18,366 nucleotides of DNA from a virus (lineage: Duplodnaviria > Heunggongvirae > Uroviricota > Caudoviricetes): IMG/VR virus record IMGVR_UViG_2695420646_000009. The stretch is one strand, 5' to 3'. The position numbers and the translations under genes are program-made. Below are positions 12,915-14,492 of the stretch, one piece after another. Within the stretch, counting starts at the first letter, position 1. Each line of letters starts with the position of its first letter. The notes under the pieces were generated by a model that was not told the DNA's origin, searched no databases, and saw only the letters and a program-made list of their open reading frames with translations.

Positions 12915-14492
12915 TTATCCTCGTTTTTCCCAAAACTGTTTTGCCAGTTCGCTCAGAGCGCTAGTTAACTGAGCGACAGATTTCGCACTTTGCAAATTAT
13001 TCTGCCCGGTCTGTACATTGGTATCAGCAGCATCGCGTATATTGATAATACTGCGGTTTATGTCTTCACTTACTGCTCCCTGCTGCTCGACCGCAGTCGC
13101 TATTTGCGCGTTCATGTCGGTAATTTCGTTAACGCGTTGGCCAATTCCATCAAGAGCTGTAGCTGCTTCCTCTGCGTGAGCTACACTCGTGTGCGCTTGC
13201 CGACTACTTTGCTCCATGACTGTAACAGCGGATTGCGCTCGCTCTTGTAGAGCGCTGATCATGCTTTGAATATCCGTTGTCGATTGCTGTGTGCGAGCAG
13301 CAAGACTGCGAACCTCATCGGCGACAACAGCAAAACCACGCCCCTGCTCACCAGCACGCGCGGCCTCAATTGCTGCGTTGAGTGCCAACAAATTCGTTTG
13401 CTCGGCGATCCCTCGTATAACGTCAAGAACTTTTGATATCTCGTTACTTTGACCTTCAAGCTCATGAATAACCTGAGTGGCTTGCCTAATTTCACCTTCA
13501 AGGGCAGTGATTGACTGGCTTGTGTGGGCTACCAGACGCTGGCCAGATGCCGTCTCAGTGTCTGCTCTTCCGGCCGCATCTGCAGCATGCTGTGCATTGC
13601 TCGCAACCTCTTGAATGCTTGCCACCATTTGGTTTACTGCCGTTGCTATTTGATCTGTCTCTGCCTGCTGCTCAACTGTAAGTACATTGCTTGACTCAAT
13701 ATCCTTTAGTAGGCCTCGGGTGTGTTCGCTAAGCCGATTTGATGCATCACCTATGCGACCTACTATGGCGCCTGTTTCAGCTTGCATCATTCGTAAAGCA
13801 AACTCTATTTGGCCAAACTCATCGGTGCGCCCAGTGTAGAGGGATTGACTTAATGGGTTATTGGAAATATTCCTGGCTCTTTCAACCAGTCTTCCAAGAG
13901 GAGAGAGAATAGCCAAAACACTAACAGAGCTTAAGCTTCCTGACATTAAAGTGGCTAACAATAAGCTGCTTATTGATGTATCAGTAAGCATGCCGGCAGC
14001 CATTGCGCTTGATATAATACTACCCCATATGAGCAAGAGTATTTTCACGGAAAAGCTAGCAGCCAATTTCGGCCTCGCGGCCTTCCCGCTTCTCAATTGA
14101 GCATATAATTTTTCCGCAGCCAAAACCTGCTCAGGTTCAGGCTTGGTCCTTACAGACTGGTATTCAACAATCGAACCATTCTTAGCTATTGGCGTTACAT
14201 AAGCACTTACCCAATAGTGGTCGCCATTTTTACAGCGATTTTTTACTAGCCCCATCCATGAGCGGCCAGATTTTAATGTACTCCACATATGCTCAAATGC
14301 AGCAGGCGGCATATCTGGGTGTCTTACGATGTTGTGAGGCTGGCCTAATAGTTCTTCCTCAGTGAAACCACTGATTTTAATGAAGTCAGGATTAACGTAC
14401 GTGATATGGCTTTGAGGGGAGGTAGTCGAAAGAATATTGGCATCTTTTGGGAGTTCTAAGTTTCGACCCGTCACTGGTAAATTCTGGCGCAT
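12915..14492 (-). CDS. mcp: Methyl-accepting chemotaxis protein with N-terminal cytoplasmic PAS domain (Aer-like), 525 aa; transposon cargo gene (Tn1721 orfI/mcp-like)
   Basis: N-terminus without signal peptide carrying a PAS-like region (...[73 protein letters not shown]...). Two hydrophobic segments follow ([19 protein letters not shown] and [24 protein letters not shown]), then the MCP signalling domain (...[42 protein letters not shown]...). ATG at 14492 with a GAGG SD. Confidence 0.85.

Follow-up and report, generated by a model that had tools for sequence, protein, structure and literature searches.

The chemoreceptor gene mcp, also called orfI, is described in published work as belonging to Tn1721/Tn1722 (PMC5736529 and PMC5756416 among others), and Tn1721 itself as having three 38-bp repeats, with mutations that set the left repeat (IRL) apart from the two right ones (PMC5736529). 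Overexpression of the Tn1721 mcp was reported to interfere with chemotaxis (Allmeier et al. 1992, as cited in PMC5756416), and the same source places unrelated genes in the position of the element's mcp half in TnAs1 (PMC5756416). Interruption of mcp by IS elements and by ISEcp1 units has been reported, in PMC5736529 among others. On the receptor side, one preprint states that all Pseudomonas Aer proteins are of the 40H signalling class, and infers horizontal transfer of aer homologs (bioRxiv 10.1101/081455). In a second preprint, 40H receptors in the E. coli pathway show lower coupling efficiency with weak but measurable responses, and mcpT, a plasmid-borne 40H receptor gene of P. putida MT53, leads to accumulation towards toluene in E. 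coli (bioRxiv 10.1101/339275). In addition, mcpT-2 is drawn within pWW0/pGRT1-type Tn3-family structures in PMC7765201.

We analysed an 18,366-nucleotide stretch of a Caudoviricetes virus record (IMGVR_UViG_2695420646_000009), hereafter the window, in which an mcp gene lies between phage genes and the transposition genes of a Tn3-family element. The features are as follows.

12196..12663, minus strand: Rz (spanin) gene, Pfam Phage_lysis E 4.5e-45; the phage gene that follows the insertion directly when read along the late-operon strand
12721..12725: AAATA, the phage sequence adjoining IRL, presumed left copy of a 5-bp target duplication
12726..12763: IRL, left 38-bp terminal inverted repeat of Tn1722/Tn1721, sequence GGGGGAACCGCAGAATTCGGAAAAAATCGTACGCTAAG
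12915..14492, minus strand: mcp (orfI of Tn1721), assigned as an Aer-family energy-taxis transducer of 525 aa, between IRL and res
13035..13520, minus strand: MCP signalling (kinase-control) core of the 40H class, aa 325-486, PF00015 E 6.9e-44
13776..13913, minus strand: HAMP domain, aa 194-239, PF00672 E 1.3e-10, 41.9 bits against a cut-off of 25
13896..14054, minus strand: predicted membrane hairpin, two hydrophobic helices with a very short loop, aa about 147-199 (Kyte-Doolittle hydropathy)
14151..14423, minus strand: PAS domain, aa 24-114, with matches to PAS_3 (aa 31-114, E 2.1e-17) and PAS_9
14616..14735: putative res site, a block conserved relative to an element whose mcp is 89% identical (alignment columns 81-200), with TGTCA/TGACA half-sites
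14649-14620, minus strand: promoter-like match towards mcp, 9/12 matches, in the res-like block
14696-14724, plus strand: promoter-like match towards tnpR, 10/12 matches, in the res-like block
14802..15362, plus strand: tnpR, serine resolvase of 186 aa, Pfam Resolvase E 2.9e-39, plus HTH_7
15366..18332, plus strand: tnpA, Tn3-family DDE transposase of 988 aa, Pfam DDE_Tnp_Tn3 E 3.4e-155, plus DUF4158
18328..18365: right 38-bp terminal inverted repeat (IRR), containing the tnpA stop codon; the window ends one base later

The 5.64-kb Tn3-family unit between these ends shares 99.9% identity or more with Tn1722/Tn1721-type copies found on thousands of plasmids. The whole unit reads IRL, mcp, res, tnpR, tnpA and IRR, with mcp divergent from tnpR-tnpA. 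By BLAST, hundreds of full-length copies showed 99.9-100% identity over 5.65 kb, at least 3977 plasmid records matched a 5.77-kb query at 99% or more with the same three annotated genes, and E. coli genomes gave the same near-identical Tn1722/Tn1721 matches as the plasmid set. When IRR (18328-18365) is reverse-complemented, 35 of its 38 positions match the left repeat, and BLAST matches to other Tn1722 copies stop at 18365 or 18366. TnpA scored 1289 bits against NCBIfam transpos_Tn3 and bears the PGAP name 'Tn3-like element TnAs1 family transposase'. Judged by its sequence, the element is Tn1722, the 'minor transposon' of Tn1721, carrying its mcp/orfI passenger gene; repeats, gene order and DNA identity all agree with a preliminary description of this DNA that had taken the receptor to be transposon-borne and the equivalent of Tn1721 orfI. 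That description also called the receptor the transposon's only cargo, which holds for the 5.64-kb unit; any tet module of Tn1721 would lie beyond IRR, outside the window. A 351-aa ORF antisense to tnpR (14646-15701, minus strand) had no Pfam match and was taken as a chance ORF in GC-rich DNA, and an Rfam scan of the window gave no match at the gathering threshold.

The mcp gene is intact. Its DNA shows 100% identity with the WP_001323889.1 CDS of NZ_CP010239.1 and of further records, and the protein it encodes, with 2579 member sequences, is the variant seen most often in the protein collection. The proposed check against Tn1721-type records, for which RefSeq/PGAP-annotated copies served as reference in place of the original Tn1721 record X61367, revealed no frameshift: the gene is full length and identical to the WP_001323889.1 copies. 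It is a long-known, ordinary gene, the orfI/mcp of Tn1721 (Allmeier et al., Gene 1992; WP_001323889.1). The MCPsignal, PAS_3 and HAMP matches of the product all exceed the Pfam curated cut-offs. Hydropathy in 19-residue Kyte-Doolittle windows placed hydrophobic stretches with starts at aa 142-152 and 174-185; since only a few residues separate them, they are predicted to form a membrane hairpin without a periplasmic domain. Domain search and hydropathy together bear out the early picture of a full-length MCP with a cytoplasmic PAS domain, two transmembrane segments and a signalling domain.

We assign mcp to the Aer family of energy-taxis transducers, and the 'Aer-like' label given to it from the outset is well founded in structure-sequence matches and conserved FAD-pocket residues. 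E. coli Aer is 51% identical to mcp over residues 7-140 without a gap, and the two share the architecture of an FAD-type PAS domain, membrane hairpin, HAMP and kinase-control domain, whereas alignment is poor in the linker, membrane and HAMP regions. The Aer pocket residues H53, R57, M69, W70, N85 and R115 are all kept, so that every checkable pocket residue is retained; H58, D60 and Y93, residues named in the mutational literature, are likewise conserved. The protein matched the Aer PAS structure 8dik at E 9.1e-41 and the full-length 'Aerotaxis receptor' chain 31cj at E 2.8e-65, and relatives that are 60-72% identical bear the source name aerotaxis receptor. In the NCBIfam library mcp had no match to an Aer equivalog model; its best match there, CtpM at 267 bits, fell far under that model's cut-off of 900.

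The signalling domain was compared with receptors of known length class under the scheme of Alexander and Zhulin, in which 40H denotes twenty heptads per arm. Aligned with the 40H receptor PcaY of P. putida (6s18), mcp showed zero net length difference. The 36H receptor Tsr of E. coli requires two 14-residue gaps, symmetric about the tip, the mcp domain being 28 residues longer; moreover, at the position of Tsr F373 mcp has Glu, a feature of 40H receptors. By this alignment the mcp signalling domain is of the 40H type found in Pseudomonas and Vibrio, two heptads longer per arm than Tsr, and not of the E. coli 36H class, whose members can join mixed arrays with Tar and Tsr. The Pseudomonas Aer homologs (Aer.g1-g5, Booth and Turner) share the 40H class and a length of about 521-526 aa, and chromosomal Pseudomonas proteins are 54-65% identical to mcp over full length. 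Their genes are, however, well above the 47.5% GC of mcp, with 57% in the one chromosomal homolog measured. No Tn3 transposase stood beside a chromosomal homolog at any of the 80 species-representative loci scanned. As a side observation, a Vibrio cholerae homolog is 66% identical to mcp.

The lower GC content of mcp noted from the start is clear-cut: mcp has 47.5% GC and a GC3 of 41%, against 65.6% and 86% for tnpR and 65.9% and 88% for tnpA. The separate origin suggested on that ground fits this contrast, and it gains from TnAs1 and from a second locus (L013), where unrelated DNA adjoins the mcp arm at a breakpoint inside res; both show the mcp arm to be swappable at res. The 14616-14735 block is probably the res site, to judge by its position and conservation. 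Counts in a promoter/terminator consensus scan of 12100-15400 did not exceed those obtained with shuffled sequence, and we therefore claim no promoter for mcp.

The left boundary of the insertion could be placed to the base. An uninterrupted phage relative (L002) reads ...GCAAATA|GCAACC at the junction, which confirms the 12725/12726 boundary; in this relative the insertion point falls in a hypothetical ORF of 44 aa, with the lysozyme gene on one side and Rz/Rz1 on the other. On the right, a single base A (18366) is all of the flank that the window holds. Three other Tn1722 copies are flanked by the 5-bp target duplications AGATA/AGATA, AGATA/AGATA and AACTA/AACTA, and the present site resembles a routine target of the AxxTA type. 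A longer left end of the element, raised by BLAST overhangs of 5-7 bases before IRL, was discarded after inspection of the three copies, in which similar target duplications cause the overhang. The only other record with the phage/transposon junction is the plasmid NZ_CP010239.1, identical over window positions 11342-18366, where the right side is rearranged, non-phage DNA with no target duplication; the junction was absent from the phage records and complete E. coli genomes searched. As the preliminary description had pointed out, mcp reads in the direction of the late genes: Rz, Nu1, terminase, portal, head and tail genes all share its strand. Since the same transposon occupies thousands of unrelated sites, this orientation is most simply chance.

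Could the shared strand nevertheless matter? The receptor would then be a phage 'moron', expressed at prophage induction by Q-antiterminated late read-through to the benefit of phage or host, and we consider this very unlikely. Besides the strand shared with Rz, Nu1, terminase and head genes, it can draw on an insertion within the lysis cassette, between lysozyme gene and Rz, and on the absence of predicted intrinsic-terminator-like sites on the minus strand from 18366 to 14400 and of any predicted terminator from the mcp stop codon to IRL. Such transcription, however, must first traverse 3.9 kb in which tnpA and tnpR lie antisense to it, and it would have to enter from a promoter-proximal flank that lies outside the window, one base past IRR, and is non-phage DNA lacking a target duplication in NZ_CP010239.1, the sole other record with the junction. 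That the junction is found in no phage record and no complete E. coli genome, and that identical Tn1722 copies sit at thousands of unrelated sites, likewise speak against a phage function, and a chemoreceptor produced minutes before lysis would have no evident use. Alternatively, the receptor might serve the transposon, for example as a redox sensor for transposition or resolution whose expression is coupled to that of TnpR through a divergent res promoter. The two divergent promoter-like matches in the conserved res-like block, both overlapping TGTCA/TGACA half-sites, would suit such coupling, and the layout resembles that of Tn3, in which resolvase, by binding res, represses the two divergent genes. 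We nonetheless give this proposal almost no credence: the sole output module of the protein is an MCP signalling domain, which acts via CheA and CheW, the 89% relative does not conserve the mcp-directed promoter match, and the same transposition genes are widespread in TnAs1 and many truncated copies without mcp.

A more serious contender concerns the present hosts, and we lean slightly towards it: in E. coli and Klebsiella, mcp may be an inert hitch-hiker, kept by its place between IRL and res of a successful resistance-linked transposon. At least 80% of mcp was found in one place in 1429 of 2770 plasmid records and in 512 of 819 E. coli genomes, so that the gene is truncated or split in about half of the plasmid copies and in 37% of the gene-carrying E. 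coli genomes; from such decay, mcp appears to be dispensable in enterobacteria. Klebsiella, which is non-motile, accounts for over half of the plasmid records. The 40H length class against the 36H receptors of E. coli points the same way, as does the near-100% identity in thousands of copies, which reflects recent spread and not selection. On the other side, the disturbance of E. coli chemotaxis on overexpression implies that the protein interacts with the pathway (Allmeier 1992, cited in PMC5756416), and the responses of other 40H receptors in E. coli are weak but measurable (bioRxiv 10.1101/339275). An inert state in these hosts is, moreover, compatible with a receptor that works in ancestral or compatible hosts, and disputes its current usefulness alone.

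We regard it as very probable that the locus is an intact Tn1722 mcp/orfI encoding an Aer-type receptor suited to 40H hosts, in an ordinary insertion in a lambdoid prophage. By homology, FAD in the PAS domain would report the redox state of the respiratory chain, and the PAS domain would relay this signal laterally to HAMP, from where it would reach the signalling tip that would control CheA via CheW. Native fit would be expected in hosts with 40H receptors, such as Pseudomonas, and weak coupling in E. coli, whose receptors are 36H; in non-motile Klebsiella, mcp would do nothing at all. The gene would derive from a lineage of lower GC than the transposition module and could be exchanged, on its res arm, by recombination at resolvase sites. 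The insertion of Tn1722 between the endolysin gene and Rz would be ordinary, and its shared orientation with the late genes incidental. This settles the annotation as Tn1722/Tn1721 with its known mcp, placed in a lambdoid prophage between endolysin gene and Rz, and not a phage-encoded function.

The old puzzle is what role a redox-sensing chemoreceptor plays on one of the most widespread resistance-associated transposons. The 89%-identical mcp homolog, in the same mcp/res/tnpR/tnpA layout, gave a dN/dS of 0.05 at a dS of 1.17, a strong indication that the diverged transposon-borne relatives are under strong purifying selection, assuming that they diverged while carried by the transposon. Additionally, an unrelated Tn3-family element (L008, 1037-7919) has a 77%-identical mcp homolog as its only gene outside transposition and toxin-antitoxin functions. 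Its terminal repeats are 117 nt long and its target duplication, GGCTT, is perfect; the resolvase has 309 aa, the toxin-antitoxin pair is of the RHH/PIN type, and TnpA shares just 31% identity with the Tn1722 transposase. The GC3 of the receptor is far below that of the transposase in all three transposons (Tn1722, the 89% relative and L008). Taken together, the 40H class, the purifying selection, the second unrelated transposon and the decay in enterobacteria point to Pseudomonas or Aeromonas, not to E. coli, as the hosts in which to study it. We raise, tentatively and as a possibility that we think rather doubtful, that Aer-type 40H receptors are a recurrent, selectively maintained cargo of Tn3-family elements and not a one-off accident of Tn1721. 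If so, a portable energy-taxis receptor would be a selectable advantage in motile hosts with 40H receptors, and it might be under resolvase control via a promoter inside res.

Two judgements in the preliminary description need revision in the light of known systems. It knew of no defined function for Tn1721 orfI; an effect of overexpression on chemotaxis had been reported in 1992, although a search for later functional work on the Tn1721 mcp (FAD binding, aerotaxis, energy taxis) found no study after that year, and to this extent the judgement stands. It also saw no obvious benefit in a mobile chemoreceptor, and here it passed over the precedent of mcpT and mcpT-2, which, like mcp, are 40H chemoreceptor genes on mobile elements. 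McpT differs in what it senses with: its ligands, aromatic compounds, bind to a periplasmic domain, unlike the cytoplasmic PAS/FAD redox sensor predicted for the Tn1722 receptor.

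The gene under study, mcp (orfI of Tn1721/Tn1722), is complete in the window, and the coordinates in the preliminary description proved exact, with an ORF of 525 aa called on the minus strand at 12915-14492. The resolvase and transposase genes of its transposon lie to its right.

Features of the transposon, the receptor and the adjoining phage DNA
11419-11733, minus strand: PerC-family regulator gene (Pfam E 3.8e-44)
12726-12763 and 18328-18365: 38-bp terminal inverted repeats, 35 of 38 positions matching
12915-14492, minus strand: mcp, GC 47.5%, GC3 41%
aa 31-114 of the mcp protein: PAS_3 (Pfam E 2.1e-17)
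aa 194-239 of the mcp protein: HAMP (Pfam E 1.3e-10)
aa 325-486 of the mcp protein: MCPsignal (Pfam E 6.9e-44)
14802-15362, plus strand: serine resolvase gene (tnpR), GC 65.6%, GC3 86%
15366-18332, plus strand: Tn3-family transposase gene (tnpA), GC 65.9%, GC3 88%

All three receptor domains score above the curated Pfam cut-offs. Hydropathy calculation places two hydrophobic helices at about aa 147-199, and since only about four residues separate them, they form a membrane hairpin without a periplasmic domain. Together these results bear out the claim of a full-length MCP with a cytoplasmic PAS domain, two transmembrane segments and a signalling domain. Compared with annotated copies and protein variants, the gene is neither frameshifted nor truncated, and its product is the commonest variant in a large protein collection (2579 member sequences). 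The preliminary description was accurate overall, including its equation of the gene with Tn1721 orfI: hundreds of full-length, annotated Tn1722-type copies on plasmids from Klebsiella, Escherichia, Salmonella, Pseudomonas, Aeromonas and other hosts share 99.9-100% identity with the 5.64-kb unit. At least 3977 plasmid records match the element at ≥99% identity, and E. coli chromosomes and plasmids match it equally well. In those copies PGAP names mcp a 'PAS domain-containing methyl-accepting chemotaxis protein' (WP_001323889.1), tnpR a 'recombinase family protein' and tnpA a 'Tn3-like element TnAs1 family transposase'. The identical layout is described for Tn1722, the minor transposon of Tn1721 (PMC5736529, PMC5756416), with three 38-bp repeats and 5-bp target duplications reported for Tn1722/Tn1721 (PMC5736529), and the chemotaxis-like gene was first reported by Allmeier et al. 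1992 (cited in PMC5756416). The window gene is therefore a member of the already known Tn1721/Tn1722 orfI/mcp.

To the left of the transposon lie lambdoid late genes on the minus strand, encoding Rz, a PerC homolog, Nu1, terminase, portal, protease, capsid and tail proteins. In L002, a phage relative that is not interrupted here, the corresponding site lies in a 44-aa hypothetical ORF, with the lysozyme gene on one side and Rz on the other, so mcp sits inside the late operon and is co-oriented with it, as had been proposed. Late transcription could then be imagined to read through into mcp and express it from the phage, and a scan predicted no terminator-like site along the way. Such transcription would need to come in through the right repeat and run antisense across tnpA and tnpR. 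The window, however, stops one base past that repeat, and the late-promoter side, the second copy of any target duplication and a possible tet module would all lie beyond it. The sole other record with the phage/Tn1722 junction is the IncF plasmid NZ_CP010239.1 (E. coli S50 plasmid A). Its positions 12743-19767 match window 11342-18366 exactly, and the phage DNA left on it amounts to only 1.4 kb (PerC, Rz/Rz1), which suggests that a prophage fragment moved onto the plasmid along with the transposon. Beyond the right repeat this plasmid has no target duplication and carries different DNA, which looks like an IS26 end. Read-through is unlikely to matter, and the shared orientation is best read as chance, since elsewhere the transposon has inserted into cbrA and traD, close to tam and into numerous plasmid backbones.

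The four Tn1722 target duplications seen are alike, namely AAATA (window 12721-12725, one side in view), AGATA, AGATA and AACTA, a likeness that may reflect an A-x-x-T-A target preference and that carried BLAST matches 5-7 bases past the end of the element. The PerC-family gene lies in a low-GC stretch (34-46%; window 10750-12250) between the small terminase gene and Rz that looks like a typical lambdoid 'moron' region.

The claim that mcp is less GC-rich than tnpR and tnpA holds for both total GC and GC3. A separate origin of the transposon's two halves is supported by this difference, by TnAs1, a chimeric transposon whose mcp half is reported to be swapped for unrelated genes (PMC5756416), and by a breakpoint in Pseudomonas sp. 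UBA2684 (L013, position 7813). There, an 89% mcp variant with about 190 bp of upstream sequence is joined, inside the res region, to unrelated DNA (AraC-type regulator, CMD family, cytochrome P460 and LysR genes), as expected for module exchange at res. In alignment with the 89% relative, intergenic block 14616-14735 is kept while similarity falls sharply on its mcp side, a pattern that would fit exchange at a putative res. Because this block contains TGTCA/TGACA half-sites together with a divergent pair of promoter-like matches, one tnpR-ward and one mcp-ward, resolvase control of mcp is conceivable; the mcp-ward match is not conserved in the 89% relative. A 351-aa ORF (window 14646-15701, minus strand), antisense to tnpR and the start of tnpA and lacking a Pfam match, is probably a chance ORF in 66% GC DNA.

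A 77%-identical receptor is carried by a 6.9-kb Tn3-family transposon that is unrelated to Tn1722 (P. aeruginosa assembly GCA_017693575.1; L008 1037-7919), present at three further loci and bounded by 117-nt terminal inverted repeats with a perfect 5-bp GGCTT target duplication; compared with copies in three other contexts, similarity stops at the repeat. It encodes a 309-aa resolvase, a toxin-antitoxin pair of RHH/PIN type and a TnpA that shares just 31% identity with the Tn1722 transposase; its only remaining gene is the Aer-like receptor. In this transposon, Tn1722 and the 89% relative alike, the receptor gene is much GC-poorer than the transposase gene. A 76%-identical homolog adjoins a GGDEF-EAL gene on an apparently chromosomal 223-kb scaffold, where gene and flanks have 54-56% GC, and none of 80 species-representative chromosomal loci had a Tn3 transposase near the receptor homolog. 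The 81% and 76% non-Tn3 homologs (L007 1074-3026, L095 5631-7850) each lie directly 3' of a GGDEF-EAL gene, of CBS or protoglobin-PAS type, recalling the link between Aer and cyclic-di-GMP enzymes described in Pseudomonas (bioRxiv 10.1101/081455).

In enterobacterial replicons mcp is frequently found damaged. At least 80% of the gene is present at a single site in only 1429 of 2770 plasmid records and 512 of 819 E. coli genomes, a truncated 373-aa form has 1067 member sequences, and insertions of IS and ISEcp1 units are reported (including PMC5736529). The longer-term picture appears to be the opposite: against the 89%-identical homolog, whose element (L003, L004, L006) shares the mcp/res/tnpR/tnpA layout with 86% TnpR and 73% TnpA identity, mcp gives a dN/dS of 0.05 at a dS of 1.17 (tnpR, 0.13), pointing to strong purifying selection. 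The transposase of this relative is called as two ORFs (L003 2209-5175, L006 3-2642), one of 256 aa with DUF4158 and one of 728 aa with the DDE region, possibly a frameshift or an inactivated copy. The functional puzzle of a transposon-borne receptor is genuine but old; modest additions, which show where to test function, are its recurrent presence on transposons, the strong purifying selection on it and its decay in enterobacteria.

The label 'Aer-like' is well founded. Among solved structures the top matches carry the name 'Aerotaxis receptor' (31cj, full length, E 2.8e-65; the Aer PAS domain 8dik, E 9.1e-41), and residues 7-140 align ungapped with E. coli Aer at 51% identity, keeping, under the same numbering, all of H53, R57, M69, W70, N85 and R115, which lie in or near the FAD pocket (PMC9668731). 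The closest named non-transposon relatives are 'aerotaxis receptors' of Pseudomonas and other gammaproteobacteria (54-66% identity). One qualification concerns the output module, which is of Pseudomonas/Vibrio type. The C-terminal half shows zero net length difference from Pseudomonas putida PcaY (6s18), two 14-residue gaps symmetric about the hairpin tip against E. coli Tsr, and Glu at the position of Tsr Phe373; these features place it in the 40H length class, E. coli receptors being 36H (bioRxiv 10.1101/339275) and Pseudomonas Aer homologs all reported as 40H (bioRxiv 10.1101/081455).

By homology, the protein would work like Aer: PAS-bound FAD would track the redox state of the electron-transport chain, and the signal would pass through HAMP to the kinase-control tip, which would regulate CheA via CheW in energy taxis or aerotaxis. 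Klebsiella, which accounts for more than half of the plasmid records with mcp, is non-motile, so there the gene could presumably do nothing. The protein should fit the native arrays of a 40H host, and other 40H receptors in E. coli are reported to connect to the pathway, weakly (bioRxiv 10.1101/339275). Overexpression of the mcp protein reportedly interferes with chemotaxis (Allmeier 1992, cited in PMC5756416), which fits interaction with Che proteins. The mcp protein resembles E. coli Aer in its PAS domain with the kept FAD-pocket residues, whereas its 40H signalling domain sets it apart from the 36H receptors of E. coli.
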